64,000 nt of DNA. Origin: an uncultured Klebsiella sp. (lineage in GTDB: Bacteria > Verrucomicrobiota > Verrucomicrobiia > Limisphaerales > SXTU01). Positions within the stretch are counted from its first letter, which is position 1, and each line of letters begins with the position of its first letter. A program made the translations under genes and the position numbers. The stretch lies in NCBI GenBank assembly GCA_964478755.1, contig CAYZJP010000006.1, positions 5,350 to 69,349 on the forward strand, read 5' to 3'. Below the pieces are notes generated by a model. The model did no database searches. It was not told where the DNA came from and saw only the letters and a program-made list of their open reading frames with translations. Positions 22,637-40,159 of the stretch are shown here, in pieces.

Positions 22637-23661
22637 GACCGCCGCGCCCTAACGTAAACGCTGTCCGCCAACTGCCGCAGCAGCGCGCGCGTGGCCGCCC
22701 GCCCGCGCAGCCACTCGGACAACGCGATGAGCCGCCGTCGCGCCCGCCCCATCAACGGTGCGTCCGTCGCCTGCAGGCCCAGGCCAAAATAACAGTCCAC
22801 GCTCAGGTCGGCAGGCCCCACGGCCTGCCGGAACGTGTCCACCAATTCACCCGGCCGCCAATAGCGCACCTCAAATTCCCGGCCCTCACGGAAACCCCGG
22901 CGCAACTGGTGGTAAATGCTCCGCACGCCCAGCGCGTTGGGCATCTGAATGAGACACTCGCCGCCGGGCCGCAACACGCGCGCGACCTCGCCAAGGGTCT
23001 GGTGGGCGTCGGCCTTGCTGAAGTGCTGGACCACGCTGTAGGAAAACACGTTGTCGAAGGCGCCGGGACGGAATGGCAGAAAGCGTGCGTCACCAACGAC
23101 GAAGTCCGCCGCCACGCCGAGCCGCGCGCACATCCGTTTCGCCGCCAGCACCGCGCCAAGCGAGGGATCAAGGCCGACGGGCCGGTAGCCCTTGCGCGCG
23201 GCGGCCACGGACCACCGGCCCCAACTGCAGCCGATGTCCAGCAACCGCCGGCCTTCCCCCGGCGGCAGCCGCAGCTCGGGCATGGGAAACTCGGTGACTT
23301 TGCCGATGAGGTCGCGGTAGAGGATGCCGTTCGTGGCCGAGATGAGCACGGCGACGACCGGGTCCACGACCGCGCCGTTCTCCTCGCGCAGCCGCCGGGC
23401 CAGCTCGCGCTCCTCGTCCGACACGCCGACCGTGGCCAGGAACCAATCGTCGGGCCGGCGGCCCGCGAGCGCCTCGCGCGCGGCGGTGAGCGACGCATGC
23501 GCGAGTCCGATGGTTTGCGGCACGTCGTCGCGCAGGAGCACCGGCACGCCCTCCACCACCGGATACTCGGCCCCGCCGGGCGAGCGGAGGATCTCGCCGC
23601 TCCGGGTGAGCGGTTCACCCGTGCGCGGGCAGGTGAGGTTTTGCTGAAGCCAGGCGTCCAT
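22633..23661 (-). CDS. Class I SAM-dependent methyltransferase with N-terminal Trm112-like segment
   Basis: ORF 22633..23757 trimmed to the ATG at 23661 (MDAWLQQNLTCPRTGEPL...YPVVEGVPVLL). SAM motif LLDIGCSWGR. Confidence 0.8.
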   Translation of the reverse strand: MDAWLQQNLTCPRTGEPLTRSGEILRSPGGAEYPVVEGVPVLLRDDVPQTIGLAHASLTAAREALAGRRPDDWFLATVGVSDEERELARRLREENGAVVDPVVAVLISATNGILYRDLIGKVTEFPMPELRLPPGEGRRLLDIGCSWGRWSVAAARKGYRPVGLDPSLGAVLAAKRMCARLGVAADFVVGDARFLPFRPGAFDNVFSYSVVQHFSKADAHQTLGEVARVLRPGGECLIQMPNALGVRSIYHQLRRGFREGREFEVRYWRPGELVDTFRQAVGPADLSVDCYFGLGLQATDAPLMGRARRRLIALSEWLRGRAATRALLRQLADSVYVRARRS

Positions 23662-23663
23662 GT

Positions 23664-24860
23664 TCACCCTCGACCCGCCGCTGTCACAGAATGGTAAGCC
23701 GCTGCGATGCCTTCCGCCGCGCGGGCGACGGTGTAGCCCTCCATCTTTTTGCGACACTGCGTCCGCACGCTTTCCGCACCCACCAAGGGCAACGCGCGGA
23801 CCAAGGCCGCGGCCAGTGCAGATGCGGAGTCTGTCTCGCAGACCTCGCCGGTGCGGCCTGGCTCAATCAAGTCCGGCGCGCAGCCGACGGCTTCCGAGAC
23901 GATCGCAGGCAGGCCATGATGCAACGCTTCGTTGACAACCAAGCCCCAAGTTTCCCCGTGCCGGCTGGGCAGGACGAACAAATCGGCGGCGTGGTAATAC
24001 GCGCTGAGTTCGCGCTGCTGCTTGAAGCCCACATGGCGCACCGCCAACGGCGGAGCCGCATTGGCCAGCGAAAGCAAATTCCCCTTCAACTCGCCGTCAC
24101 CCACCAACAGCAGGACATAGCGCGAACGCTCGTGCTCCGGGAACTGGCGGATCGCCTCCAACAGCAAGTCTGGGCCCTTGCGCGGACTGAGTTTGCCACA
24201 GAAGACGATGACCCGCTGACCGTCGGTCACGCCGAGTTCGCGGCGCGTAGGCCCGCGTAACTCCGCCCGCGCTGCTTCATCGGTGCGGAACGGCGTCGTG
24301 TCCACGCAATAGGGCGAGCAGTAACTTTCATCACTGCCAAAACCCAGCCGACGGAAGTGCTCGCGGGAGCGCCGCCCTACGTGCAGCAGCGCAGCGCAAC
24401 GGCGATAGAACCAGCGGAGCGCCGTGTCCCGGGCCAACCGTTTCAGAAGGTTCCTTTGTTGGGCGTGGTCCGTCGTCTCGCCACGGAAGAGCACCGGCAG
24501 CCCTGCTCGCCACGCCGTGCGAAAGGCGTCGCTGTGGTAGCGCGGACTGTAGCCGACCGAGAGCACGGCGCGAGGTTGGACGCGCCGCAACACTTCGGCC
24601 AACCCACGCGTCGTCACTTGACGGTCATCGCTCGCGCCACTGTCCGCGACGCGCGAGAGGAAGACCGGCGTGCAACCCCGGAGTAGGTCCGCGTCCCAAG
24701 AGAAGCTGGCGTTGAACTCCGCGTCCCGGTAGCCGGCCATGCTGAAGTCCGAGCCATAAATCGCCGTGACTGGAATGCCGTGCGCCCGCTGCACCTCACG
24801 CCAGACGGGCGCGTGGTATTGGATCGGATGGGTTTCGATAACAGCCAGGCATGCTGTCAT
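23664..24860 (-). CDS. Glycosyltransferase family 4
   Basis: ORF 23664..25016 trimmed to the ATG at 24860 (MTACLAVIETHPIQYHAP). Motif GETWGLVVNEALHHGLPAI. Confidence 0.85.
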   Translation of the reverse strand: MTACLAVIETHPIQYHAPVWREVQRAHGIPVTAIYGSDFSMAGYRDAEFNASFSWDADLLRGCTPVFLSRVADSGASDDRQVTTRGLAEVLRRVQPRAVLSVGYSPRYHSDAFRTAWRAGLPVLFRGETTDHAQQRNLLKRLARDTALRWFYRRCAALLHVGRRSREHFRRLGFGSDESYCSPYCVDTTPFRTDEAARAELRGPTRRELGVTDGQRVIVFCGKLSPRKGPDLLLEAIRQFPEHERSRYVLLLVGDGELKGNLLSLANAAPPLAVRHVGFKQQRELSAYYHAADLFVLPSRHGETWGLVVNEALHHGLPAIVSEAVGCAPDLIEPGRTGEVCETDSASALAAALVRALPLVGAESVRTQCRKKMEGYTVARAAEGIAAAYHSVTAAGRG

Positions 24861-24973
24861 GGCGGCGCTGGGAAAATCGGTGCGCTTTGCGCACAAGCTT
24901 GCCCGATGAGGGCGGCGCGGCCAAATCCTTAAAACAGGAAGCAAATCATTGCGAACCAAGGAGAGCAGACTTT

Positions 24974-25613
24974 TCATTTTGGCTTCCTTGCCTGGGTGCC
25001 CAACGAAAAATCCCACGGCACAGGCAGTTCAATCAGATCAAACATGGGATCTCCGGAATCGCCATAACTCACCGCCTTGATGTCCACAAAACCGATTTCT
25101 AAAAGCTCCCCACGCAGCGACGCCTGATCCCAAAGCCATTGGTGGCGAGAATTACCGAAGGCTTTGCGTAAAAGACCCTCGACGCCTCGTGGCTCCCGTT
25201 CCATGCCAAGCCCCAACCGCCGCATCAGAATATGTGCCGCGTCGGGGCTGTTGTTCTGGCAATACTCATCCACCATCTCGCGAAGGTGCGGGATGAAGAA
25301 CCGGACCGCCCCCCCCGGGTGCCAGATACCGGAACACGTTCTTCAGTGCCGCACAGAAGCCTTCCCTAGTAAGGTGCTCAAAAACTTGGTCGGCGTAAAT
25401 CCGCTGGCTGACGCCGTTGGAAATCGGCAGCCCTGACACGATATCTCCATAGCGGGCCATCTTTCCCCAAGCCGGCAGCTTGAGAATCCGCGTCAGACCG
25501 GGAACTTTACTCAGCAAGAGCGTCGGGCTCTTGTCAAAATTGTGCCACCCTTCACGCGCATGCACGCCGCAACCCACCTGCACAGGGAGCAAGTCTGATT
25601 GATTCTGGTTCAT
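24974..25613 (-). pseudogene. SAM-dependent methyltransferase split by a +1 frameshift in a G8 run
   Basis: ORFs 25266..25613 (MNQNQ...VQVGCGVHAREGWHNFD...YLAPGGGG) and 24974..25276 are the two halves of one methyltransferase. Removing one G from the run at 25309-25316 gives the continuous reading YLAPGGAVRFFIPHLREMVDEY. Confidence 0.8.
25309..25316 (-). repeat. G8 (coding strand) homopolymer at the frameshift site
   Basis: Plus strand shows 8 consecutive C at 25309-25316, followed by GGG. Confidence 0.9.
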
Positions 25614-25769
25614 ATTGCAATGGTCCGCTGCCCCAATTTTAGCCTAACACTTGGTGCAAGTTTGCGCACGAGGAACAGTGCCCGCGTTGCAGGAAGAATA
25701 ACAATGCCGAAAACCTAAAACGGATCGTCAGCCAAGCGCGTCAGAACGCAGCCAATGCAAGCAGCCGAC

Positions 25770-26054
25770 TTACAGAACATTGCTTTTCACATGCGCCTCA
25801 TTTGGCTCGACCGCGATCACCCGCCCGCCCGCGCCCGCGCCCACGAGCAGGGACAGATGCAGCGCGTGTCCGCCCCAGTTTGTGCGCACATCCACCACCA
25901 CGTCTCCCGCCTGGACGAGCCGACCAAATGCCTGTTGCATCGGTTGTTCATGAGCAGAGTGCCAAGTCTCCATGCCCGTGATCGGGCTCACGCGGTAGCG
26001 CATCCCCCGCAGGGCCCGAACGCAATTCTGCGGACTGCACCATTGGGAAAGCAC
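25770..26054 (-). pseudogene. Truncated, degenerate FkbM methyltransferase remnant
   Basis: The 94-aa ORF contains GDVVVDVRTNWGGHALHLSLLVGAGAGGRVIAVEPN, a degraded version of the xDVGANIG...EP motif seen in the three intact FkbM genes. The reading frame ends after about one third of a normal FkbM protein. Confidence 0.65.
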
Positions 26055-26104
26055 AGCCGACGCACGAGATGTTTGAGAGGATTGTTCCGCATAGGCGAGC
26101 CTAA

Positions 26105-27253
26105 CTAGGCGGACTTTGCACAGTTCAACATGCGCAGCACGGGCGCGAACTGCGTCTCATAATTCCACTCATCAAGGATGCGTTGCCGCCCGCTGGCCCG
26201 TGCGGCTTCGGCCTCCACCGGGTGGTCGAGAAACCAGCTCACCGCCCCGGCGATGCTCCGGCCATCAGTCGGGTCGCAGGTGCGAGCGTAGCCCGGTTCC
26301 ACGAACAATGTGCGCCAGTCCGGAAGATCGGACACGAGTAGATTCAATCCGCAGGCGAGGTAGTCAAACGGCTTGTTCGATGCCCCGGTCATCGCGCGCA
26401 TGTTCAGGTCGCCGCTCGCAGCCGGCATGAAGGCGAGGCCGATGTCTGCACGAGCACAGTAGGGAAGCAAGTCGTGCCGACGACTGAACGCCCCGAGAAA
26501 TTTCACTCGTCCCGTTAAGTTCAGCCGCCCGGCTTCCGCCAAGAACTCCGTGATATAGTTGCGGTTGCCCTCGGTGGTGTATCCCGCGATTTCTAAGCTG
26601 ACGCGGTCTGGCAGTCGTGTGAGGGCGTGGACAACAGAGATTGGTAAGCGAAGCGCGTTGATCGAGCCGTGGTAAAAGAGCGTGCATCCGCCAACTCGTT
26701 TCCGTAATGGAAGCACATCGCGCTTGCCCGGGCAGTTCCAAACCGTCAGCACGGGGCACGCCGGGCGAACCGTCTCAGCAAATACTCGCGCCCGCTCCGC
26801 GTTGGGGAGCACGACGGCGGCGGCGCGCTGGCAGAGCCGGCGGCGCGCGCCAAGGATGCGGCGGAAGAAGGGCGTGGCATCGTTCACCGTCGGCGAATCA
26901 TGCTCATGGTAAATCACGCGCCGGCCTGGCAGCCGGCCGGCCAGCCAGGCCGCCGGGCACGTGAGAGGTTCGGACGCGTAAATCCATCGCGCACCGCTCC
27001 GCCACGAACGCCACCAAGTCCACAGGCAGAAGCCGGTGAAGTGCGCCTTCTGCCGCCAGCCGGGACCGGAGTAACGCCACCTCTCCGTGCGAATGCGCGG
27101 GTGCGGCTCAAATTGAAACGCATCCGCCTCGCCCAAAGCCCCGCTGCCGAGGAAGAGCACTTCCCAGCCGCAGTCAGCGAGAATCCGCGAGCTGTGCTCC
27201 AGAGGAGGATAGCCCGCCGGGTTGGTGTATTGGACATAGAGGATGCGCCTCAC
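26105..27253 (-). CDS. Glycosyltransferase (GT4-like)
   Basis: ORF 26105..27280. Start set to the GTG at 27253 (VRRILYVQYTNPAGYPP), which forms a GTGA overlap with the AT3 stop. Shows the GT-B C-terminal half. Confidence 0.7.
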   Translation of the reverse strand: MRRILYVQYTNPAGYPPLEHSSRILADCGWEVLFLGSGALGEADAFQFEPHPRIRTERWRYSGPGWRQKAHFTGFCLWTWWRSWRSGARWIYASEPLTCPAAWLAGRLPGRRVIYHEHDSPTVNDATPFFRRILGARRRLCQRAAAVVLPNAERARVFAETVRPACPVLTVWNCPGKRDVLPLRKRVGGCTLFYHGSINALRLPISVVHALTRLPDRVSLEIAGYTTEGNRNYITEFLAEAGRLNLTGRVKFLGAFSRRHDLLPYCARADIGLAFMPAASGDLNMRAMTGASNKPFDYLACGLNLLVSDLPDWRTLFVEPGYARTCDPTDGRSIAGAVSWFLDHPVEAEAARASGRQRILDEWNYETQFAPVLRMLNCAKSA

Positions 27254-28374
27254 GCCGGCTGCCTCCGCGCGGTGAACCATCCGTTCACGATCCTCCGGAC
27301 TTCCTCCGTGCGCCGCTCAAACAGCCACCAGACCAGATGTGATCCCGCGAGCGTGAGCGCCACGACGCCGGCATAGACCGCGAAGCCCACCGCGCCGGGC
27401 TGCCATTGCCGGCCTTGCAGCACGCCGAAGGAAAGGAAGGCGAGGAACGGGAAGTGAAAGAGGTAGAGCGTGTAGGAGGTGTTGCCAAAATACCGCGCCG
27501 GCCCGCGCCACCAACCGGTCCCGCCCGTGTCCGCCGCCAGCCGCGGCAACGTGGCCGCAAAGGCTGGCGCGATCCAGTAGTCCGCGCCCGCCAGCCCGCG
27601 CCACCGGTTCCACAAGAGCACGCCGCCCAAGCCAAGCAGCGCGCCCCAGAACACCGGAGCCGAGCGCGCCAGCTTTGCAATGCGCGAACGGCTGAACACG
27701 TAGGCCGCATATCCCGCCAGCCACATCAGGCCTGCGAGCAGAAAACCAACCGGCAGGAACACACCCGCCGCCAGCAGCAGCACGAGGAAGAACAGCCGTC
27801 CTCGCACGGGAGTCGTTCGGTGGCACATCGCGAATCCGAGGGGAAACATCAGATAATACCAGAACTCGTTCGCGAGCGACCACAGCGGGCCGTTGCTCCC
27901 GAAGGTCCGCACGACGATGGTTTGCAGAAAGCAGACATTGCCGAGCAGGGCGAGGACGCCGCTGTCCGCCGGCTCCGCCGTCGAGGGGCCGGAATGGATT
28001 CGCTCGTAATAGCGGCCATCGTAGCCCGCCCCGCCGCTCAACGTCCCGCCGGCCAGGTCCCAGCCCAGCGTCAGCGCCAGCGCCGGCAGCAGCACCAGCC
28101 AGAGCCGCGTCATCCGCCGCAGCGCGTAGTCCCCGAAGCTCCACCGGTTCGTCGCGAACCGCTCATGCACCGCGCCGCCGATCAGAAAGCCGCTCAGGAC
28201 AAAGAAGATGACCACGGCCTGGTGGCCGAAGCCCGTCAGCCCGTAGAAGGCGTCCGTCACGACGTTGCGCTCGGACACGGCGAAGTGTTCCACGAAGAGA
28301 AACGCGCGCAGGTGGCCGAGCAGGACCGCCAGCGCCGCCATGCCCCGCACGAGGTCAAGCTTGTCGAGCCGCAT
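27250..28374 (-). CDS. Acyltransferase family 3 (AT3) membrane O-acyltransferase
   Basis: 374 aa, MRLDKLDLVRGMAALAVLLGHL, polytopic, with no SGNH domain. G+C is much higher than in the paralogue at 7789. Confidence 0.85.
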   Translation of the reverse strand: MRLDKLDLVRGMAALAVLLGHLRAFLFVEHFAVSERNVVTDAFYGLTGFGHQAVVIFFVLSGFLIGGAVHERFATNRWSFGDYALRRMTRLWLVLLPALALTLGWDLAGGTLSGGAGYDGRYYERIHSGPSTAEPADSGVLALLGNVCFLQTIVVRTFGSNGPLWSLANEFWYYLMFPLGFAMCHRTTPVRGRLFFLVLLLAAGVFLPVGFLLAGLMWLAGYAAYVFSRSRIAKLARSAPVFWGALLGLGGVLLWNRWRGLAGADYWIAPAFAATLPRLAADTGGTGWWRGPARYFGNTSYTLYLFHFPFLAFLSFGVLQGRQWQPGAVGFAVYAGVVALTLAGSHLVWWLFERRTEEVRRIVNGWFTARRQPA

Positions 28375-29194
28375 GGGGTTGGGGGGATTCCCGCCGCGCC
28401 ACGACCTCGCCGTAGTTCTCGATCCGTCGCACCGGCGCGCCGTCGAGATGCTCGACCACGTAGCCGTGCCGGGCCAGCCGGTTTAGCAGGGAATCGCTGC
28501 TGGTGCCGCAGTAATGCCAGTTGTAGGGATGCACTTCTATGTAGATTCGGCGCGGGGATCGAGCGGCATCACGCAGCAGGGTATCCGCACCTTCGAGAAC
28601 CTCTTCTTCGAAGCCCTCCACGTCCACCTTGAGGATGTCCACGCGACGGTTTGCAAAATAGGTATCCAGCCGCATCACTGGCACTTCATGGGAGCCGGGT
28701 GTGCCTGCGGGCACGATCTGGTTCTGAATATCCTTCCCCCCGCTGAAGCTGATGCGTCCGTCCTGCGCGCCGACCGCCGCGTTGACAACCGTCAATTGCG
28801 ACTCCACTCCGTTGAACTTTGCATGAGTTTCCACCCATCTGTGATTCGCTGGATCAGGCTCAAACGCGATCACCCGCCCACCAGCTCCCACGCGTTTGGC
28901 TAACGCCACGGCATAAAGCCCAATGTGCGCACCCACATCTGCCACGGTATCGCCAGCCCGAAGATGGGACATGACGTGCCGCCACACGTCCGGCTCGTAG
29001 CTTTCGCCAAGATTGCGAAAGCGCGGCGCGATCAACATCCGGTCGGTGCCGTTGAGGTTGCGCTCCAGTCCTCGACGACCCAGACCGTTGACGATCCGGT
29101 CGTAAGCCGGCCGCGCCGCGTTCCACAACCAGTCCGCACGCTTCAGCCACACGCTGTGCCGCAGCCGCACACACGCCTGTTCAATCGCGTTCAT
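28355..29194 (-). CDS. FkbM family methyltransferase
   Basis: Motifs VADVGAHIGLYA, IAFEPDP and LKVDVEGFE. Confidence 0.85.
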   Translation of the reverse strand: MNAIEQACVRLRHSVWLKRADWLWNAARPAYDRIVNGLGRRGLERNLNGTDRMLIAPRFRNLGESYEPDVWRHVMSHLRAGDTVADVGAHIGLYAVALAKRVGAGGRVIAFEPDPANHRWVETHAKFNGVESQLTVVNAAVGAQDGRISFSGGKDIQNQIVPAGTPGSHEVPVMRLDTYFANRRVDILKVDVEGFEEEVLEGADTLLRDAARSPRRIYIEVHPYNWHYCGTSSDSLLNRLARHGYVVEHLDGAPVRRIENYGEVVARRESPQPHAARQA

Positions 29195-30539
29195 GTCTTA
29201 CGTCCCTCACCAGCCGTCGGTAAAGCACTGCCATCTCGCCCGCCGCCGCCGTCATCGTGCGCGGGGGCCGGATGTTCGCCCGCAACGCATCCAACCGCCT
29301 GCGATCCACCACCAAACCCCGCAGCGCAGCGGTCCAGTCCGCCTCCTGCGCTGCTTCGACCAGCAGGCCGTCCACCCCGTCGCGGACCAGTTCCGCAATG
29401 CCGCCAAGATGTGAGCCGAGAACGGGCACCCCGGCCGCGAAGGCTTCGAGCACCACCATTGGCCCTGTTTCCAGCCATTGGGAAGGCACGGCGAGCAGAT
29501 CATATCCGCGCAGAGTTTCCACCACCCGGCTGGCGGGCACGGACGAACGGAAATTGATGCGCGGGTCGCTCGCAGCGAGCTGCCGTAGCGAGTCTGCGTA
29601 AGCTTCTCCCACAGCCCCTTGGGCGATCCCGTAAACGTCCGCCGACAACTTCATCGTCGGCAGCCCTCGCACCGCTCGCACCAGCACATCAACGCCCTTT
29701 GTGCGATCCAGCCGGCCGAAAAAGGCGATGCGCAATGGCGGCTCCGCGATATCCCCTTCAGCTTTCGGTTTTCCGGTTTCCGCTCTGGCACGGCACGGCT
29801 CCTGGCACAAACCCTGTCGCGACAAGGTGATCTTCTCCGCCGGCACGTCGTTGCGAAGCAAAACCGCCCGCACCCATTCGCACACAGCCACAATGTGGTC
29901 CGCCTCGGCTAGAAACTCACGCGCACACCGTTGCCGCAGTGCTGTCAATTCTCTCGCCCTGACAGCCGTCCAAATCCCGCCCCGCATCCCGGCGCGACCA
30001 CACAGTTCGCCGGCAGCCGCCGGCACCGCTTCCAACGCCTGAACCGCCAGACGGTTCCCCCCCGCCCCCCCCAACGCCCCATCGCCGCCACAGCCCCCCG
30101 CCCATCCCCCGTCCCCCCCCTCCCCACCCCCCCCCCCCCCCGTGCCGCGCTGGCACGTGGCTGTGGGCGTGTGGTAGGTGTAAACCACCGGAATACGCCG
30201 CCGCCGAGCGGCCCGCAGCATCCGCAGCGAAACCCCACGCGTCTGAGCGTGCAGATGCACGACGGCCGGTCGTTCCTCATCAAGCACGCGCTCGAAACTC
30301 ACCGCAGCCATCGGATCCCCTTCTCCATAGAGGTCACGCAAATCGGAAATCTCCTCATTGAGACCATACCGCCGCACTCGCAAGCCAGCGTGCTCCTCCA
30401 CCGTCTCCCGTGCTGCCGGCGCGGCGATCACCGACTCGACGCCGCACTCGGCCAATCGCTGCGCGAGCGCTTCAACGTAAACCTCCGTCCCCCCGACCAC
30501 ATCAGGATAGAAGGCGAAGGGCACTTGGAGAACCTTCAC
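29181..30539 (-). CDS. Glycosyltransferase family 4 carrying an internal Gly-rich low-complexity segment
   Basis: ORF 29181..31019 trimmed to the GTG at 30539 (VKVLQVPFAFYPDVVGGTEVY), a GTGA overlap with the upstream stop. C-terminal motif ETGPMVVLEAFAAGVPVL. The central stretch GTGGGGGGEGGDGGWAGGCGGDGALGGAGG is encoded by the G-run tract. Confidence 0.75.
   Translation of the reverse strand: MKVLQVPFAFYPDVVGGTEVYVEALAQRLAECGVESVIAAPAARETVEEHAGLRVRRYGLNEEISDLRDLYGEGDPMAAVSFERVLDEERPAVVHLHAQTRGVSLRMLRAARRRRIPVVYTYHTPTATCQRGTGGGGGGEGGDGGWAGGCGGDGALGGAGGNRLAVQALEAVPAAAGELCGRAGMRGGIWTAVRARELTALRQRCAREFLAEADHIVAVCEWVRAVLLRNDVPAEKITLSRQGLCQEPCRARAETGKPKAEGDIAEPPLRIAFFGRLDRTKGVDVLVRAVRGLPTMKLSADVYGIAQGAVGEAYADSLRQLAASDPRINFRSSVPASRVVETLRGYDLLAVPSQWLETGPMVVLEAFAAGVPVLGSHLGGIAELVRDGVDGLLVEAAQEADWTAALRGLVVDRRRLDALRANIRPPRTMTAAAGEMAVLYRRLVRDVRHERD
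30057..30141 (-). repeat. G-run tract (G15, G4, G8, G5, G3, G6 ... G4, G8, G7 on the coding strand)
   Basis: The plus strand shows C runs: 15 C at 30127-30141, 8 C at 30113-30120, 8 C at 30065-30072, 7 C at 30057-30063 and several shorter ones. The run count and frame were checked against the translated ORF. Confidence 0.9.
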
Positions 30540-31531
30540 ACGGGCTGGCGAATCGCCGGGGTTCCCCGCCCAAGCAGGCGTTTGATCTGCTCGTAGAATC
30601 CGCGGCCCATCAGGGTGCCGGCCAGATGCCGCGCAACACCGGGCCGGAACAGCCATTGCGGTTGACGCCGCAAAGCCTCCCAATAGCAGCGCCGTGCGTC
30701 CGCGTCGTGATGCACGCCGAAATACTTCTCGGCAAAATCCACGTAGTGACTGGCGTAGGTGCCGGACTTGGCCAGCCACTTGGCCCGCTCCAGTGCGGGG
30801 TCCGCCTCGGTCTCGCTGAACACTTTGTCCAGCACCCACAGCACCGACGGTTCCTCGCTCTTGTTGAGCACCACCATATGATGATGATTCTGTGAGTGGA
30901 CGCGATAATCCGCCACCACCTCGTTGACGTAATAGTATTCGTGCCGGCGGGCTAGCATCACGTTGAAATACCAATCGTTGAACGCCAGCCCGTCCGGCAA
31001 GGGGCACGCGGACATCCACGCCTCGCGCCGCGCGATGGCCGTTGGGCGGCAGCTGTAGTTTTTCCTGAGGATGCGCAGCAGCTCATTGCCCTTGCGGTCG
31101 TGGGCGCCAAATTCGGAGCCGATCTTTGGCTGCGTAATTACTCCCTGCTCGTTGATGAGCGCCACGTCGCCAAAGACCAACCCCACCTCGGGATGGGCCT
31201 CGAGTTTGGGCACGGTCGCGGCCAGAAAGCCAGGCCGGTGGCGGTCATCGGGGTCAACGCGGACCAGGTATTTGCCCCGCGCCTCTCTCAGCCCTCGGTT
31301 GACCGTGACGATGTGGCCATGGTTCTTCTCGTGGACGATGACGCGCAGGCGCGGGTCGGCAAACTCGCGCAGAATCTCGAGTGTATTGTCCTTCGAACCG
31401 TCATCCACGGCGATGATCTCGAAGTCCTGACAACCCTCCTGTGCGATGATGCCGCTCAGACAGTCCGGCAGAAAGCGCCCGTAGTTGTAACACGGGACGA
31501 CGAATGAGACCAAAGGGACGCCACTGCTCAT
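30536..31531 (-). CDS. Glycosyltransferase family 2
   Basis: ORF 30536..32074 trimmed to the ATG at 31531 (MSSGVPLVSFVVPCYNYGRFL), an ATGA overlap with the upstream stop. Motifs IAVDDGSKDNT and VDPDD. Confidence 0.85.
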   Translation of the reverse strand: MSSGVPLVSFVVPCYNYGRFLPDCLSGIIAQEGCQDFEIIAVDDGSKDNTLEILREFADPRLRVIVHEKNHGHIVTVNRGLREARGKYLVRVDPDDRHRPGFLAATVPKLEAHPEVGLVFGDVALINEQGVITQPKIGSEFGAHDRKGNELLRILRKNYSCRPTAIARREAWMSACPLPDGLAFNDWYFNVMLARRHEYYYVNEVVADYRVHSQNHHHMVVLNKSEEPSVLWVLDKVFSETEADPALERAKWLAKSGTYASHYVDFAEKYFGVHHDADARRCYWEALRRQPQWLFRPGVARHLAGTLMGRGFYEQIKRLLGRGTPAIRQPV

Positions 31532-32238
31532 GCCAGCCAGTCCAAGGAAGCCTGCTTGATCACCCGCGCCGGCACTCCCGCCACGGTCGCGCCGTCCGGC
31601 ACATTCCGAATGACAACCGCACCCGCTCCAACGATGGCGTCGCGCCCGATGGTGATCTTTTCCTTCACCACCGCGCCTGCGCCGATGAACGCACCATCGC
31701 CCACGTTTACGTTGCCGCACAGCGTGGCGGCAGGATTGATGTTTACGAAGTCGCCGATCACGCAGTCGTGGGAAACGGATGCCTTCACGTTTAGGATGCA
31801 ATGCCGGCCCACGCGCACACGTGTGGTGAGGATCACGTTGGGCGCGAGCAACGTGCCCTCGCCGACCGTCACGTCGTAACCAATCTGCGCCGTCGGGTGC
31901 CGCAGCGTCCACGGACGGAGGTTCGCCTGGCGCAGGGCTTCGACCGCATGCACGATTTTCAACCGCACGGCATTGTTGCCAAAGGCGGTGATAAAATACA
32001 GCGCTCCGCGCAGTCGCGCGCGGGCCAGCTTTTCCAACGCGGGCAGCCCACCATGCACCTCGCTGTCCAGCCAAGGCCCGACCGCGCGGCTGTCGTCAAT
32101 GAAGCCCAGCAACCGGATGCGCTCCTTCGCCGCACGGAGATCGGCGAGATACGAACGCACTTCGCTGCCATGACCGCCAGCCCCGATGATAAGAACAGCC
32201 ACCTCCGAAATGCGCGGGGACGGGCTTTTCGTTTTCAC
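31528..32238 (-). CDS. NeuD/PglD-type sugar N/O-acetyltransferase (left-handed beta-helix)
   Basis: ORF 31528..32361 trimmed to the GTG at 32238. N-terminal Rossmann-like LIIGAGGHGSEV, then hexapeptide repeats ending in VPDGATVAGVPARVI. Confidence 0.8.
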   Translation of the reverse strand: MKTKSPSPRISEVAVLIIGAGGHGSEVRSYLADLRAAKERIRLLGFIDDSRAVGPWLDSEVHGGLPALEKLARARLRGALYFITAFGNNAVRLKIVHAVEALRQANLRPWTLRHPTAQIGYDVTVGEGTLLAPNVILTTRVRVGRHCILNVKASVSHDCVIGDFVNINPAATLCGNVNVGDGAFIGAGAVVKEKITIGRDAIVGAGAVVIRNVPDGATVAGVPARVIKQASLDWLA

Positions 32239-32261
32239 GCGGTATTGCTCGCGTCCACTGG

Positions 32262-33314
32262 TCAGCGCGTCACTGGGGCCATGCTGCGGGCCATGGACTC
32301 CATCAGGCCAACGAACTCCTTGTGATTCGCATCGCCGAACTGGGTCAGTTCCTTCATCCACTTGGCGTTGCGGTAGAAGATGGACTCGGGGTCCTGGATG
32401 CCGCCGTTGGTGATGGCATCCACGATTTCCTCGGCACCGAGGGCCACGTTCACGCGCGGCTGGAAGCCGGCCGCCTTCATGCGCGCGGTCGAGACATGGT
32501 AGTTGCGCGCGTCCTTGTCCGACGTGTCGAGATACTTGGGCTTCACGTGCGGGTTGATCCGCCGGAAGATGTCCACCAGGTCCACCACGCGCAGGTTCTC
32601 ATGCGCGATGTTGCAAACCAGGTGCTCCGTCCCCTTGGCCTCCGCGAAATGGACGAACGCGCGCGCGCAGTCCGAGATGTGCAGAAAGGGCCGCCATTGC
32701 AGGCCGTCGCCGAAGATGCGCACCTCGTTGTAGAGCGTGCTCATGAAGGCGAAGATGTTAATAACGAGGTCGAACCTCATGCGCGGCGAGTAGCCGTAGA
32801 GCGTGCCGTTACGCAGACTCACGGGCCGCCAGTCCGGAGTAGCAATCGAGGCGAGGAAGCGGTCCGAGTTGACTTTGGAGTGGGCATAGGCGGTAAGCGG
32901 ATTCACGAGGCCGGTCTCGTCCACTTCGCCGGGCGCCTCGCCATACACCGAGCACGACGACGAGAAAAGGAAACGTGCGCCACGGGCCTTCGCCGCCTCT
33001 GCGAGCGCCTGCGTGGCCTGGAAGTTGACCTGCTCGGTGAGCACGGGGTTCAGCTCCGCCGACGGGTCGTTCGAGATGGCCGCGAGGTGAATGACGCAGT
33101 CAATGTTCTCCAGCGCGCGCGCGCATTCCTGCTTGTCCTGCGTGAAGCGCCGCACGTCCTCACGGATAAGTTCGATGCCCGGTCGCAAGGTGCGCAGGTG
33201 CGAAGTGCCAAAGTAGCCAACGTCCACCACACGGACTTTATGGCCGCGGGCGAGCAATTTGGGGACCAACACGGAGCCGAGATAACCAGCCCCACCAGTG
33301 ACGAGGATGTTCAT
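32262..33314 (-). CDS. NAD-dependent sugar epimerase/dehydratase (extended SDR)
   Basis: MNILVTGGAGYLGS with the catalytic motif YAHSK. Start is the ATG at 33314. Confidence 0.85.
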   Translation of the reverse strand: MNILVTGGAGYLGSVLVPKLLARGHKVRVVDVGYFGTSHLRTLRPGIELIREDVRRFTQDKQECARALENIDCVIHLAAISNDPSAELNPVLTEQVNFQATQALAEAAKARGARFLFSSSCSVYGEAPGEVDETGLVNPLTAYAHSKVNSDRFLASIATPDWRPVSLRNGTLYGYSPRMRFDLVINIFAFMSTLYNEVRIFGDGLQWRPFLHISDCARAFVHFAEAKGTEHLVCNIAHENLRVVDLVDIFRRINPHVKPKYLDTSDKDARNYHVSTARMKAAGFQPRVNVALGAEEIVDAITNGGIQDPESIFYRNAKWMKELTQFGDANHKEFVGLMESMARSMAPVTR

Positions 33315-33327
33315 GTTAGAATTGCAA

Positions 33328-34080
33328 TCAGTCTTTCCGGGCCAGGCACCAGAGATGGGTGTCTTCAGGACGAACAAAGGTTGAGAGAACTGTCAGGCCG
33401 GCCGTTTTCACCGCCTCCCGCAAATCTTCATCCCGATATTTGTTGCCGTTGAATTCGGCCGGTTCGCCCGGTTGCCAGCGATGGGTGTCGGCGCGTTTGA
33501 GGCCCGTTTTGTAGAGCAGTTTCGCAGCGCGCCCCCCCAGCGAATCGCCGAACATGGTATCAGGATCCAAGCAACGCACGTCGAAGCGAAACAGCCCGCC
33601 CGATTTGAGCGTGCGATGCACCTCACGGAGGTAGTTCAGGATGATGCCGCCGTCGAAGATATGGATGAACACATCCACCGAGTAGGCGAAGTCAACCGTC
33701 CCGCCCGGGACCATGCCCAGGTCGTAGCCAGTGTTCACATACAACGAGAGTCGTGGGTCTGCGCCGGTGTTCTTTCGGGTGTAACCAATCATGGTCTCCG
33801 AAATGTCCACGCCGTAGAGCTTGCTGAATTTCACCCGCTTCTGCATCTGGCGAATCATGCGGCCCACCCCGCAGCCGACCTCCAGCAACACCGGCTGGGC
33901 GGAAAGCTGGATGTCTCTCAAGAGGATGTCCCCCGTGCTCTCGGCCAAGGCCAGGAATTTGGCCTCGTCGCCCTTGGACACGGTGTCCACCCGCGCAAAT
34001 GTTGCCTCGCGCTCATCGTTGGTGTTCCAGAATTTCCGCTGCTGTGCGGCGTAGGCTTCAAAATTTGGGTCAGCACTCAT
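33328..34080 (-). CDS. Class I SAM-dependent methyltransferase
   Basis: Motifs LLEVGCGVGR and LKSGGLF. The start is the ATG at 34080 or the one at 34113. Confidence 0.8.
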   Translation of the reverse strand: MSADPNFEAYAAQQRKFWNTNDEREATFARVDTVSKGDEAKFLALAESTGDILLRDIQLSAQPVLLEVGCGVGRMIRQMQKRVKFSKLYGVDISETMIGYTRKNTGADPRLSLYVNTGYDLGMVPGGTVDFAYSVDVFIHIFDGGIILNYLREVHRTLKSGGLFRFDVRCLDPDTMFGDSLGGRAAKLLYKTGLKRADTHRWQPGEPAEFNGNKYRDEDLREAVKTAGLTVLSTFVRPEDTHLWCLARKD

Positions 34081-35227
34081 GAGGGTTGGGAGGCGAGGGT
34101 TTTTTCTTGGCAAAGTATTCTTGCACCACGCTGAAAAGGCGGTCCATCTCCGTCTCGCTCATGACAGTGTGGATGGGAAGAGAGACCACGTTGTCCTTGA
34201 TGGCGTTGGTGAAGCTCAAATCCTGCTGCCGGTAACGGCCCCGGTAGAATTTCAGATCATGCGTGGCGGTGTAGTAGCGGCGCACGGCAATGTTCTTGCC
34301 GCCCATGTGGCGCACGAACTCCGTCGCTTCCTCGTTGAGGACGATCGGGAAATAGAGATACGGGCAGGTCACCTCGGGCGTGACCCGCATCTGCCGCAGC
34401 ATCCCACGCGACTCCAGCCCACCAAAGAACTCGCGATAATGCGCCGCGTTTTTCGCCCGGCTCGTCAAAATGAAGTCAATCTTCTCCAAGTTGCGCAGGC
34501 CCACCAGCGCACACACCTCGGTCATCTTGGAGTTCAATCCCGGAATGTCCACGTCGCCCCGGGTCTTCTCATACTGGCCAAAATCCCGAAGTCGGAGCAG
34601 GTAGTCCGCGATCTCCGGATCGCTGACAACATTACCGCCACCCTCCATCGAATTGAACACCTTCGTCGCGTGGAAGCTCACCATCTCGCTGAAACCGTAG
34701 GCACACGGAAACTTGTTGTTATACTTGGAGCCAAAAGCCGGCGCGTTGTCGAGCAAGACGGCGAGGTTCTGCGCCTTGGCCAGCGCGCCGAGTTTCTCCA
34801 AATCCACCAAGTTTCCGTAGGCCCCCACAGGCATGATCATCCGGATGTTGGGCGAGTCGGCCACGGCCTTGTCCAAGTCGAGCACCAAGCCCGCGTCCAC
34901 GTCGCAGAATACCGGCTTCAGGTTGTTGGTGACCAGCGCGTTGATCGTGCCGGAGAAGGTGAAGGACGGCACGAGCACCTCGAACGAGTCGTGCGGGCCA
35001 GCGCCGAGTTTGTGTTTCCACGCCTGAATGAGGTGGAAGAGGGCCAACTCGCCGTTGCAGTTGACCGACGGCCTGATTGGGCAGCCGAAGAACTCCTGCA
35101 GCTTCGCCTCAAACTGGCGGACATGCGGCGAATTGTTGGTGACCATCCCGGACTGGAGACACTGGGCAAACTCGGCCGAAAGCTCGGCTAGGTCCGGCAT
35201 GAAGGGGCGGACGATGTTGATCTGCAT
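34070..35227 (-). CDS. DegT/DnrJ/EryC1/StrS family sugar aminotransferase
   Basis: 385 aa with the PLP-lysine region SFHATKVFNSMEGG. Confidence 0.9.
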   Translation of the reverse strand: MQINIVRPFMPDLAELSAEFAQCLQSGMVTNNSPHVRQFEAKLQEFFGCPIRPSVNCNGELALFHLIQAWKHKLGAGPHDSFEVLVPSFTFSGTINALVTNNLKPVFCDVDAGLVLDLDKAVADSPNIRMIMPVGAYGNLVDLEKLGALAKAQNLAVLLDNAPAFGSKYNNKFPCAYGFSEMVSFHATKVFNSMEGGGNVVSDPEIADYLLRLRDFGQYEKTRGDVDIPGLNSKMTEVCALVGLRNLEKIDFILTSRAKNAAHYREFFGGLESRGMLRQMRVTPEVTCPYLYFPIVLNEEATEFVRHMGGKNIAVRRYYTATHDLKFYRGRYRQQDLSFTNAIKDNVVSLPIHTVMSETEMDRLFSVVQEYFAKKKPSPPNPHEC

Positions 35228-35362
35228 GGCGAACGGTGTAATTATAGTCGACGAACTGGAAAATCATTCTCCCTGGCGACAAACTGGAGGCGGAAGTTAC
35301 GTAAGTCAATGGCCTCGGCTTGCGAAGGCCTCAGCGAGGAATCCGACATTTCGTGCATTGGC

Positions 35363-36028
35363 TCACAAGTCACGTTGCCAGGTGATGTTCGAACGAAGCA
35401 CTTTCGCCGGAGTCCCCCCAATCAAGGAGTGCGGCGGATAATCCGCCGCGCACACCAAGGAATGACTTGCGACGACAATGCCGTCCCCCAGTCGAGCACC
35501 CTTGAGCACGCTGCTTCCATGGGCAACCCACACACGATTTCCAATGACTACGTCAGCCTGCGATGCCTGGCCATGAATTTCGTGCCAGTTCGAATCAGTG
35601 ACGAGGACGTTCCATGCACACAAGAAGTCATGACCAATCCGCACGCTGCGTTGGACCATGATGGTCGAGTTACAGGTTATCCCAGAATCCGATTCCAAGC
35701 GCTTCCCACCGATGTGCAGCGAAGCGCCTGCGGCGACGAAAATTCGCACGCCATTGCCAATCGTAAAATTGCCGTCGATTCGCAGCATACCTCCCTTGTG
35801 TATGACGATAGCCGCCGCCTCGTTTCCTCCCAAAAACGAGACCACTCGAAGGCTGCCGTTCAAAATCAGCTTGGCACCTGGCTCCTTGACTACATCGAAA
35901 GGGAAGCGGGGATGCTGACATAGTTCGATACTCCCTTTGCCCTCATCCACCAGCCGGCCAAGCCGTCGCTCCTCCAAGCCTCGCAACACTTTGCGAAACA
36001 CACGAACAGGCAAGGAGACTTTTGTCAC
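35363..36028 (-). CDS. Hexapeptide-repeat acetyltransferase
   Basis: The C-terminal half is typical of this fold: VIGNRVWVAHGSSVLKGARLGDGIVVASHSLV...LIGGTPAKVL. Confidence 0.75.
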   Translation of the reverse strand: MTKVSLPVRVFRKVLRGLEERRLGRLVDEGKGSIELCQHPRFPFDVVKEPGAKLILNGSLRVVSFLGGNEAAAIVIHKGGMLRIDGNFTIGNGVRIFVAAGASLHIGGKRLESDSGITCNSTIMVQRSVRIGHDFLCAWNVLVTDSNWHEIHGQASQADVVIGNRVWVAHGSSVLKGARLGDGIVVASHSLVCAADYPPHSLIGGTPAKVLRSNITWQRDL

Positions 36029-36167
36029 AAGAGCGGGCCGGGCTTGACCCGGCTTGACAGATCAACAATCGGTGCGGACCCGTCATCTGGGAAACCGCGA
36101 GATCTTCGCTGCCACGACGAATGAAGGCCCCGTGTTTTAGGATTAGCAGACAAGCCCATCCGGAAAA

Positions 36168-37265
36168 TCAGGCCGCATCAGAAACCCACGCGCGTTTAAG
36201 GCTCCGCCAGCGTCGTTTCGTCGGTTCCGGCAGCCGACCATAGGCTGCGTTAAGCAGGACAGGTAAGGCCGCGCTCAGGGCACGCAACTTGGCCAGAACT
36301 GTGCGTTGAGTCTCCAGAACCTTGAGCACACATTTCCACAAGTGAGGCAGGCTGCGGTGCCTCTTGAACAACAGTTTCACTGTCTTCCACTGCGTGCGCA
36401 CGAACTGCCGCTCGGCGTGGAGCAGATATTCTTGGCTGACCCCGAGGCGGCGATACTCCTTCAGGATGAAAGGCTGGACGTGGTTCAACAGATCGAGCAC
36501 CTCATCAGCCCACTCCTGTGCGCCGCTGCTCTGCACGGCGCAGGCTTCCGGAATGAAGTGGAAGCTGCAGTGCCCCTCGCAGGCGTAAAGGATGGCCAGA
36601 TGCGGAAAGGTGTTATTAAGGTTCGTGAAGAGACCGTCGCATCCAATGCGTTTGAGATCCAACTCGGCAATCCGCGCACGCCACACCGACGGCTTGAAGA
36701 TATGCGCCGGTATGCCGCAGAAGATGGAGATATCGCCGCCGCCGCATTCCAGGATGTCGCGCAGATGGTCGCTGCGCACGTCCTGTGCGTGCGGTGTGAT
36801 GCGCGCCTGCCACAGTTCGTTCATCGGCACGGAAACGCGGCCATTGAACACTATCAGCCAGTCGTCCAGAGACATCGTCGCCACATTCAGCAGAAGATAG
36901 TCCGCCGCCTCAGGGAGGGTGATCGCCGCCAGCACGCGGGCGATGCCTTCCTGCAGAGGGAAATCATCGTCGCCCAACATCCAGCAGTAGTCCGCACGCG
37001 GCATCTCGGTCCCCAGCCAGAAGAAGTGAGCATGTGCATGGACGTGCTGGTCTGGCTGCACGGCGCGCAATTGCGGCCAATCGGCAAAACGGTCTATCAC
37101 CGCCTGAGTATTGTCCGTGGAATGATTGTTGGAGACGACGACTTCGATAGCTGAACCGAACGGCTCCACTTGCCGGCGCATCCAAGCCAACGATTTCTCC
37201 AGCACTTTCGCCCGGTTGTAGGTGGGCACAAGAATGCTGAGCAACACGGGGAACTTTCTAGCCAT
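36168..37265 (-). CDS. Glycosyltransferase family 2
   Basis: ORF 36168..37334 trimmed to the ATG at 37265 (MARKFPVLLSILVPTYNRAKVL). Motifs VVSNNHSTDNT and GDDD. Confidence 0.8.
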   Translation of the reverse strand: MARKFPVLLSILVPTYNRAKVLEKSLAWMRRQVEPFGSAIEVVVSNNHSTDNTQAVIDRFADWPQLRAVQPDQHVHAHAHFFWLGTEMPRADYCWMLGDDDFPLQEGIARVLAAITLPEAADYLLLNVATMSLDDWLIVFNGRVSVPMNELWQARITPHAQDVRSDHLRDILECGGGDISIFCGIPAHIFKPSVWRARIAELDLKRIGCDGLFTNLNNTFPHLAILYACEGHCSFHFIPEACAVQSSGAQEWADEVLDLLNHVQPFILKEYRRLGVSQEYLLHAERQFVRTQWKTVKLLFKRHRSLPHLWKCVLKVLETQRTVLAKLRALSAALPVLLNAAYGRLPEPTKRRWRSLKRAWVSDAA

Positions 37266-37352
37266 GGGAAAGAAGCGTAGTTTGGAGTGTGAGCGGCGGC
37301 CATCCACTTGGCGTTTGTGCAGGCAGCTTAACACTAATTCATTGCGGAATCC

Positions 37353-39092: not shown

Positions 39093-39103
39093 TCCGGGTG
39101 AAA

Positions 39104-40153: not shown

Positions 40154-40159
40154 GACGAC

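Follow-up and report, generated by a model that had tools for sequence, protein, structure and literature searches.

The locus lies within a stretch of DNA of 64 kb (64,000 nucleotides), analysed as a whole and referred to here as the window; its features are listed in Table 1. In the product of the GT4 gene Pfam identified an N-terminal Glyco_trans_4_4 domain (residues 16–238, E-value 5.5e-19) and a C-terminal Glycos_transf_1 domain (E-value 3.1e-23). When the version of the protein encoded by an independent assembly (contig L001, described below), which we take as the true one, was modelled with AF2, a GT-B fold was predicted with a pLDDT of 95.3, and Foldseek matched this model to MshA, GlgM, PimA and other GT4 structures. 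The presence of both Pfam halves and the predicted GT-B fold are shared with the GT4/GT-B retaining glycosyltransferases MshA (3c4q), GlgM (6tvp) and PimA (2gej). The nearest match among the GTDB representative genomes came from a Pedosphaera sp. MAG, with 70% protein identity. The gene overlaps its neighbours at both ends, its start with the stop of the upstream gene by 4 nt and its stop with the start of the downstream gene by 14 nt. Scans of the window for Rfam families and tRNAs gave no matches.

Table 1. Features of the locus; positions are counted from the first base of the window
Feature	Position	Strand	Basis
GT4 (GT-B fold) glycosyltransferase gene, 452 aa, GTG start	29181..30539	-	Pfam, AF2, Foldseek
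Patch 1, full span of departure from L001 (133 nt, 46 ungapped mismatches, equal length)	30008..30140	-	
G-run tract, dense part of the probable error patch 1	30057..30141	-	base composition, L001 comparison
C runs of 7, 8 and 4	30057-30063, 30065-30072, 30077-30080	+	
C runs of 6, 3 and 5	30094-30099, 30101-30103, 30106-30110	+	
C runs of 8, 4 and 15	30113-30120, 30122-30125, 30127-30141	+	
Palindrome GCCGGC-TGCT-GCCGGC (true sequence, + strand), GGC-rich, site of the first sparse miscalls	30009..30024	.	true/window alignment
Short GC-rich inverted repeat GTGCC-AGCGC-GGCAC (- strand), contains GGC, abuts the abrupt edge of patch 1	30142..30156	.	sequence
Patch 2, smaller probable error patch (upstream GT2 gene; 7 substitutions, 6 amino-acid changes)	31000..31053	-	Logan comparison

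The plus strand of the G-run tract reads CCCCCCCGCCCCCCCCAACGCCCCATCGCCGCCACAGCCCCCCGCCCATCCCCCGTCCCCCCCCTCCCCACCCCCCCCCCCCCCC. C accounted for 67 of these 85 bases (0.79), compared with a mean of 0.32 (SD 0.056) for 85-nt windows across the 64 kb, the runner-up among which reached 0.53. The tract is unique in the window, where all other homopolymers are at most 8 bases long. The run lengths given for the coding strand in the original prediction, namely G15, G4, G8, G5, G3, G6 ... G4, G8, G7, proved to be exact, and the tract does lie in frame inside the GT4 gene: it is read through in the ORF 29181..31019 (minus strand) and translates as GTGGGGGGEGGDGGWAGGCGGDGALGGAGG. Its placement between the two Rossmann halves of the enzyme was incorrect, since the residues concerned (134–163) belong to the N-terminal domain. 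The flexible linker between the domains was found at approximately residues 245–268, where AF2 returned low pLDDT values.

For comparison we used six Logan contigs assembled from the public runs SRR12313479 and SRR12313480, which cover positions 22438–40820 of the window. These contigs matched the window at 18,196 of 18,383 positions and showed 53 mismatches, all of them located within patch 1 (46) and patch 2 (7). Of the independent contigs, only L001 (1645 bp, run SRR12313480) spanned the tract itself; it is a separate assembly, while the deposited contig may or may not stem from the same runs. L001 was 100% identical to the window over 1512 flanking nucleotides, and across patch 1 it consisted of ordinary coding DNA of 71% GC containing no homopolymer. 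Independent sequence of an ordinary kind at this site was the very observation that, according to the original prediction, would speak against a real tract. The tract of about 85 nt was present as described, but the comparison with L001 revealed that the abnormal stretch is longer and takes in the whole of patch 1.

Searches for further copies of the G-rich version returned little. In JGI metagenome contigs there were 0 matches to a pattern tied to the flanking sequences on either side of the tract, with which either version was detectable. The glycine-rich protein was found once only, as NCBI record P0121 (encoded on an NCBI contig of 69,762 bp), which is identical to the window version of the GT4 protein and is the sole other member of the 90% cluster of P0001. 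The full-length protein search listed no further close relative, and an exact look-up of the window GT4 protein in a contig index gave no record. Searches with short queries (the G-rich and the normal 128-aa segments) yielded distant fragments only, and they missed P0001 itself, so that they constitute a weak test.

The segment affected by patch 1 is a conserved part of the enzyme. The L001 version encodes a C-x12-C-x8-C-x2-C loop comprising C129, C142, C151 and C154, each conserved in 99–100% of 120 homologues from many phyla; the window version is devoid of C142, C151 and C154. The length of the patch segment is identical in 113 of the 120 homologues, and a run of more than two glycines within it was present in none of them (0/120), so the alignment of homologous proteins, which had been proposed as a check, argued against the tract as a real feature. 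Predictions made by AF2 with the same alignment gave pLDDT values for residues 121–160 of 94–97 for the L001 version, as against 78, 48, 66 and 69 for the window version. The cysteine loop, which lies in the N-terminal domain and is overwritten by the error patch, is an addition that distinguishes this GT4 subfamily from MshA, GlgM and PimA. A sequence search found no solved structure covering the loop; the best match to a solved structure was significant only from residue 202 on, and its weak N-terminal match ended at residue 127. On this sequence evidence, the real sequence is very probably the L001 version, which encodes the conserved four-cysteine loop of the GT4 subfamily. Given that the strain, when assembled independently, shows ordinary coding sequence of equal length at this position, we consider the tract to be a patch of sequencing errors in the deposited contig, that is, an artefact of some kind and not part of the genome of the organism, with a probability of roughly 0.9. 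The caution given in the original prediction, that a sequencing artefact might have been carried into the assembly, was supported by the ordinary sequence and equal length of L001.

The mismatches in patch 1 had a distinctive spectrum. On the coding strand 35 of the 46 were changes to G, in which the base replaced was C in 14 cases, T in 13 and A in 8, while G was kept at 53 of 55 positions. Within the dense part T was changed to G at 12 of 14 positions, A at 7 of 11 and C at 12 of 22, and G was kept at 35 of 37. There was no sign of selection in these differences, because the three codon positions were hit without bias (14/14/18) and 23 of the 31 changed codons were non-synonymous. The miscalled base was equal to the preceding base of the plus strand in 35 of 46 cases (76%) and to the following base in 21 of 46; it was equal to one of the two preceding plus strand bases in 40 of 46 (87%). 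A change to G depended on the neighbour on one side (next minus strand base G; Fisher p=3e-4) and not on the other side (p=0.82). Positions at which the true base is the same as its plus strand predecessor were wrong in only 1 of 27 cases, compared with 45 of 106 elsewhere (p=6.5e-5), and even among the miscalls other than G, 9 of 11 copied the preceding plus strand neighbour. Counted per 20 nt in the plus direction, the miscalls numbered 3, 2, 4, 7, 11, 9 and 10, followed by 0 from position 30141. The density of errors thus climbs along the plus strand and halts at 30141, like the 3′ end of a failing read.

Similar traits were observed in patch 2, located 0.9 kb from patch 1. At this site contig L034 (SRR12313480) differs from the window at 7 positions, and contig L035 (SRR12313479) confirms the 4 of these that it covers. 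At residues 160, 162 and 165 of the GT2 protein the Logan version agrees with the consensus across 44 homologues (I 30/44, A 30/44 and V 15/44, respectively), and the window residues at these positions are either outside the five commonest (S, R) or rare (A, 2/44). Patch 2 carries the neighbour signature and shows no bias towards G. An exact look-up of the GT2 protein, for which an approximate (guessed) start was used, gave no record.

Sequence-specific dephasing on Illumina instruments provides a close parallel to this spectrum. In the reads studied by Nakamura 2011 (PMC3141275), 49–61% of miscalls match the preceding base and approximately 20% the one before it; the triggers are GGC and inverted repeats, and such errors produce gaps and errors in de novo assemblies. 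Patch 1 shares with those cases the consecutive miscalls, the sharp boundary, which may be tied to nearby GGC motifs or short inverted repeats, and the copying of the preceding template base or bases in one direction only. It differs in that the errors stand in a deposited consensus and not in reads, and its collapse to a single base (C15) goes beyond the published examples. GGC and inverted-repeat motifs sit at both edges of patch 1, though such motifs are common in DNA of 63% GC. By analogy with Nakamura 2011, the inverted repeat next to the abrupt edge may have acted as the trigger or as the boundary of the errors, and the palindrome at the other edge, where the first sparse miscalls fall (30008, 30015 and 30018), could likewise have been a trigger.

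If the tract is an artefact, dephasing of a plus strand read is the origin that we favour with moderate confidence; we infer the orientation of the read, the chemistry and the assembly step. In this mechanism one or a few poor plus strand Illumina reads, ending at approximately 30140, would have been progressively dephased while passing through the GGC-rich, hairpin-prone stretch, and each call would represent the true base or else the template base just before it. With a plus strand template of 41% C the calls would collapse to C, which on the coding strand is read as G. Coverage at the site is likely to have been low, and an assembler, gap closer or polisher would have adopted the poor reads as consensus without shifting the coordinates, which would be the reason why the gene is still in frame. 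Two observations fit this account less readily: a de Bruijn assembler normally leaves a failing tail as a dead-end tip and does not join it at 30141, and the exact conservation of length is unlike a purely lagged read. An extra step, namely mapping-based consensus, polishing or gap closing, has to be assumed on both grounds.

The original prediction had named a particular artefact, poly-G arising from two-colour chemistry. Loss of signal on a NextSeq or NovaSeq instrument would require that a minus strand read was called G wherever its signal was weak and was then assembled. On such instruments a fading signal causes T and C to be called as G (fastp paper, PMC6129281), and the poly-G tails described there resemble patch 1 in the excess of the no-signal base G on one strand and in the preserved length. 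This explanation would account for the 35 of 46 miscalls that are G on the minus strand, for the retention of G at 53 of 55 positions, for the conversion of T, A and C alike, and for an onset at 30140 directly after a GGC-containing hairpin on the minus strand. However, miscalls per 20 nt along the minus strand amount to 10, 9, 11, 7, 4, 2 and 3, which is the reverse of a poly-G tail, and in contrast to such tails the true bases here remain visible in register and the miscalls depend on the neighbour. The dependence on a following G (p=3e-4), the sparing of repeated bases (1/27) and the 9 of 11 copies that are not G are not predicted by pure signal loss, and would require unusually strong pre-phasing; patch 2, moreover, carries the neighbour signature without the bias towards G. 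Thus the artefact that had been suspected was supported as such, but the specific chemistry fits less well than plus strand dephasing, and we regard it, given an artefact, as possible yet rather unlikely.

Phase variation is known to operate through poly-G tracts in glycosyltransferase genes, with examples in the lgt genes of Neisseria and the LOS and capsule loci of Campylobacter. The tract could in principle be a real allele, in which a clustered burst of substitutions turned the cysteine-rich loop into a glycine-rich one and created G15, with a phase switch, polar effects and a G-quadruplex as consequences. Like those phase-variable tracts, it is a long G run in a glycosyltransferase ORF of a polysaccharide cluster with coupled neighbours. 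It is in frame; it passes all formal G4 criteria, with a canonical motif and a G4Hunter score of 2.84; the gene overlaps of 4 and 14 nt make polarity plausible; and a reproducible frameshift associated with the G8 run at 25309–25316 lies 4.8 kb away. Tracts of the Neisseria and Campylobacter type, however, vary in length between sisters and are conserved among relatives, whereas here the sister sequence L001 and all 120 homologues are without the tract. L001 differs from the window by substitution and not by repeat length, unlike contingency loci, and with the same length and no homopolymer it left the proposed G15 phase-variation switch unsupported. The proposed G-quadruplex fared no better, since the L001 version scores 0.46 and has no G4 motif; if the tract is an artefact, both phase variation and the G-quadruplex are moot. 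A burst of 46 substitutions within 133 nt would also stand against none in the flanking ~18 kb (patch 2 apart), it would have changed C, T and A alike to G regardless of codon position, and it would have removed three cysteines conserved at 99–100% together with the predicted local structure. Copying of neighbours in a specific direction is a pattern of sequencers, and we know of no mutational process that yields such a spectrum. A real allele accordingly has a slim chance in our estimation. Slimmer still is that of a G-rich version genuinely coexisting with the other as the product of a template-dislocation-type burst, each mutation copying a neighbouring base; if true, this would mean that a zinc-finger-like cysteine loop had become a poly-glycine loop, and that a translationally coupled polysaccharide operon held a G15 contingency tract and a G-quadruplex.

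Rewriting of the loop by targeted hypermutation, for example through a diversity-generating retroelement, or by gene conversion from a G-rich donor would agree with changes so tightly clustered in one segment, of the size of a surface loop, in a conserved protein. Retroelement mutagenesis targets the adenines of a template repeat, but only 11 of the 46 changes are at A, whereas C accounts for 20 and T for 13. Neither version of the segment is repeated anywhere else in the 64 kb, which leaves no template repeat or donor there, and 87 of the 133 bases are still in register with the true sequence, which argues that the segment was not replaced. We rejected a retroelement or gene-conversion origin on the basis of the base spectrum and the missing second copy in the 64 kb, and consider it extremely improbable. 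It is equally hard to credit that the window is right and L001 wrong or chimeric. L001 is short (1645 bp), and its ends abut other contigs at branch points of the graph (29158/29181 and 30774/30802). Yet its version reproduces a motif conserved at 99–100% in 120 homologues, with pLDDT values of 94–97, and neither chimerism nor error would bring that motif back base for base at identical length. On either side of the patch L001 matches the window with 100% identity.

As a patch of miscalled bases in a consensus the tract is without biological significance, and its value is practical. The public NCBI record carries a false stretch of 133 nt and probably a second one of 54 nt. Protein databases will take up the false glycine-rich GT4 protein P0121 and, from the adjacent GT2 protein, six false residues, and such patches will rank among the top hits when MAGs are scanned for homopolymer switches, G-quadruplexes or low-complexity inserts. 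A cheap routine check is to set the contig against a second, independently made assembly of the strain and to ask of the mismatches whether they leave the length unchanged, fall without regard to codon position and repeat the neighbouring base from one side only.

The plus strand at 30057-30141 carries successive C runs of 7, 8, 4, 6, 3, 5, 8, 4 and 15 bases with spacers of one to few bases, which reproduces the G15 to G7 series predicted on the coding strand. C accounts for 67 of the 85 bases (0.79), compared with a mean of 0.32 (SD 0.056) for 85-nt windows and 0.53 for the runner-up over the 64 kb, and no homopolymer longer than eight bases was found in the 64 kb outside the tract. The tract is in frame, as had been predicted, within ORF 29181..31019 (-), where it is translated as GTGGGGGGEGGDGGWAGGCGGDGALGGAGG and forms residues 134-163 of a GT4 glycosyltransferase. 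This protein has both GT4 halves (Glyco_trans_4_4, residues 16-238; Glycos_transf_1, residues 262-423), a flexible linker at approximately residues 245-268 and a predicted GT-B fold, the nearest solved structures being MshA, GlgM and PimA. MshA was the best match among solved structures, with significant alignment confined to residue 202 onwards. The tract had been placed between the two Rossmann halves; it in fact falls within the N-terminal domain.

A search covering 5.8 billion protein clusters returned one match of equal length at 95% identity, P0001; every other match showed at most 72%. The window's own protein was represented in the collection only by its NCBI record (P0121, 69,762-bp contig). 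P0001 is encoded on L001, a 1645-bp Logan contig assembled independently from the public run SRR12313480, which aligned without gaps to 29158-30802. All 46 mismatches between L001 and the window were located in 30008-30140 (133 nt), the remaining 1512 nt being identical, and the two proteins differed only within residues 134-178, where P0001 reads GTLLRWGSEVCDGVMAECLCTACALDGRGVNRLAAHALA, as do all other family members. The original prediction had proposed an alignment of homologous GT4 proteins; 120 relatives showed a cysteine motif, C129-x12-C142-x8-C151-x2-C154, conserved at 99-100%, and a segment of the same length in 113 of them, with no glycine run longer than two in the segment of any of the 120. 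The window protein retains C129 and is devoid of C142, C151 and C154. In AlphaFold2 models built with the same alignment, the pLDDT over residues 121-160 was 94-97 for P0001 and 78, 48, 66 and 69 in the same blocks of the window version, the remainder of the protein being unchanged.

Five further Logan contigs from runs SRR12313479 and SRR12313480 were found via the neighbouring genes (see table). Together with L001 they span 22438-40820 (18,383 nt) and are the same as the window except for the tract span and seven mismatches at 31000-31053. Such near-complete identity indicates that the window and the Logan contigs are of one strain, from which the window departs in two short patches; the tract itself is spanned by L001 only. 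A JGI metagenome scan gave no match and a literature search on the runs found nothing. Contigs of SRR12313480 end and abut at 29158-29181 and 30774-30802 (overlaps of 24 nt and 29 nt), leaving the GT4 gene on its own 1.6-kb contig, and no complete GT4 is on record for a contig of SRR12313479. This suggests graph branching or low coverage around GT4 in both runs.

Coordinates of the genes, loop, probable error patch and independent contigs discussed in the text
Feature	Position in window	Strand	Description
GT4 gene	29181-30539	-	452 aa, GTG start
Cys loop C-x12-C-x8-C-x2-C (true version)	30078-30155		GT4 residues 129-154, N-terminal domain, pLDDT 94-97
Patch 2	31000-31053	-	within GT2 gene 30536-31531; 7 substitutions vs Logan
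Split ORF pieces	25266-25613 and 24974-25276	- (G8 strand)	G8 frameshift
L037	22438-28003		Logan contig, SRR12313479
L036	26736-29181		Logan contig
L002	28020-29544		Logan contig
L034	30774-40820		Logan contig
L035	31027-38344		Logan contig

The second patch lies in the GT2 gene upstream of GT4. None of its substitutions is synonymous, and they produce six amino-acid changes (I160S, A162R, V165A, A174S, W176C and V178L). At all four jointly covered sites the two independent runs concur against the window. In a 44-homologue alignment the Logan GT2 agrees with the consensus at positions 160 (I, 30/44), 162 (A, 30/44) and 165 (V, 15/44); the S and R of the window at the first two are outside the five commonest residues there, and its A at 165 occurs in 2/44. 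The remaining three sites were uninformative. This is probably a further error patch in the deposited contig and supports poor source data for that stretch.

Within the main patch (30008-30140), at 35 of the 46 mismatches the coding strand of the window has a G in place of C (14), T (13) or A (8), and a true G was retained at 53 of 55 positions. The mismatches are spread evenly over the codon positions (14, 14 and 18) and alter the amino acid in 23 of 31 affected codons, a pattern unlike that of a conserved enzyme diverging under selection. The miscalled base was the true base next on the minus strand, that is, the preceding base for a plus-strand read, in 35/46 cases; the opposite neighbour matched in 21/46 only, and 40/46 miscalls equalled one of the two preceding plus-strand bases. 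Non-G bases were converted to G at 26/40 positions when the next minus-strand base was G versus 9/38 otherwise (Fisher p=3e-4), with no effect of the other neighbour on this conversion (p=0.82), and nine of the 11 non-G miscalls likewise copied the next minus-strand base. A true base repeating its plus-strand predecessor was wrong at 1/27 positions versus 45/106 elsewhere (p=6.5e-5; mirror-image test, p=0.17). Informative positions in the dense part agreed with the true base in 31 cases, with the preceding base in 30 and with neither in eight. A CAT motif was twice displaced by one base, and every C of the C15 run, when examined by hand from the alignment, could be accounted for by the true base or by one of its two predecessors. 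Mismatches per 20 nt along the plus strand numbered 3, 2, 4, 7, 11, 9 and 10, with an abrupt stop at 30141. The patch edges coincide with short GC-rich inverted repeats containing GGC (30009-30024 and 30142-30156), motifs that are common in DNA of 63% GC.

The ordinary sequence in the independent assembly and the error-like differences support the caveat, raised originally, that the tract could be an artefact; from these sequence comparisons we put the probability that it is not a real feature at about 0.9. Given an artefact, the properties of the main patch most likely reflect dephasing during sequencing by synthesis. Dephasing produces stretches of consecutive miscalls that begin at fixed genome positions and occur in one read direction, is triggered by GGC motifs and inverted repeats, yields the preceding reference base in 49-61% of miscalls and the one before in about 20%, and is said to hinder assembly (Nakamura et al. 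2011, PMC3141275). On this presumed chemistry, a single failing read or a few of them, presumably in plus-strand orientation, would have ended near 30140; mixing of in-phase and lagged signal would make C the plurality call, since the plus-strand template in the patch is 41% C. For want of good coverage, such sequence would have entered the consensus through an assembly step that presumably preserved the coordinate register and, with it, length and reading frame. In a plain de Bruijn graph a tail of this kind would usually persist as a dead-end tip; mapping-based consensus, polishing or gap closing therefore has to be assumed. The two-colour dark-cycle poly-G artefact (PMC6129281) proposed originally would also make the tract spurious, but we consider it less likely than dephasing as the mechanism: error density declines 5' to 3' on the G-carrying strand, signal loss alone predicts neither neighbour dependence nor the sparing of repeated bases, and the second patch shares the neighbour signature (4/7) without bias towards G.

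Biological readings fared worse. The suggested phase variation would need tract-length differences between sisters and conservation of the tract; L001 shows no such length difference and relatives do not conserve the tract. The suggested G-quadruplex is formally an excellent motif in the window (G4Hunter 2.84), but the independent version scores 0.46 and lacks a canonical motif. The sole other block in the window with a G4Hunter |score| of at least 1.75 is at 50132-50157 (-1.8, C-rich plus strand). A real hypermutated allele would need an unknown mutational process mimicking a sequencer and is very improbable. Retroelement-type hypermutation was ruled out by the base spectrum and the lack of a second copy in the window. 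A biological interpretation of the tract is not supported.

The window from 22000 to 41000 and beyond contains a long polysaccharide-biosynthesis gene cluster on the minus strand, with two GT4 and two GT2 genes, a GT-like protein, an acyltransferase-3, an FkbM methyltransferase, a PglD-like hexapeptide acetyltransferase, an NAD-dependent epimerase, a SAM methyltransferase and a DegT aminotransferase. Judging from the coordinates, GT2 and GT4 share 4 nt at the GT2 stop and GT4 start, and GT4 and FkbM share 14 nt at the GT4 stop and FkbM start. Scans of the 64 kb for tRNAs and Rfam families found nothing. A minus-strand G8 at 25309-25316 interrupts what would otherwise be one ORF of 212 aa, leaving pieces of 115 aa and 100 aa, and deletion of one G fuses them (...RYLAPGGAVRFFIP...). 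The repaired protein had no Pfam match at E<=0.01. The same G8 and split are reproduced in the independent contig L037, which agrees with the window at every one of 5,566 nt, and the frameshift is therefore likely to be genuine. It may reflect a pseudogene, a phase-variable off state or programmed frameshifting, and is a more credible candidate than the tract for the switch originally envisaged.

The main value of the finding is as a warning for database use. At the genome level the closest match of the GT4 is in a Pedosphaera sp. MAG (70% identity), and homologues of the Cys-loop GT4 subfamily occur in Verrucomicrobiota, Cyanobacteria, Acidobacteriota, a Gemmataceae MAG and others. The Cys loop itself may be a metal site.
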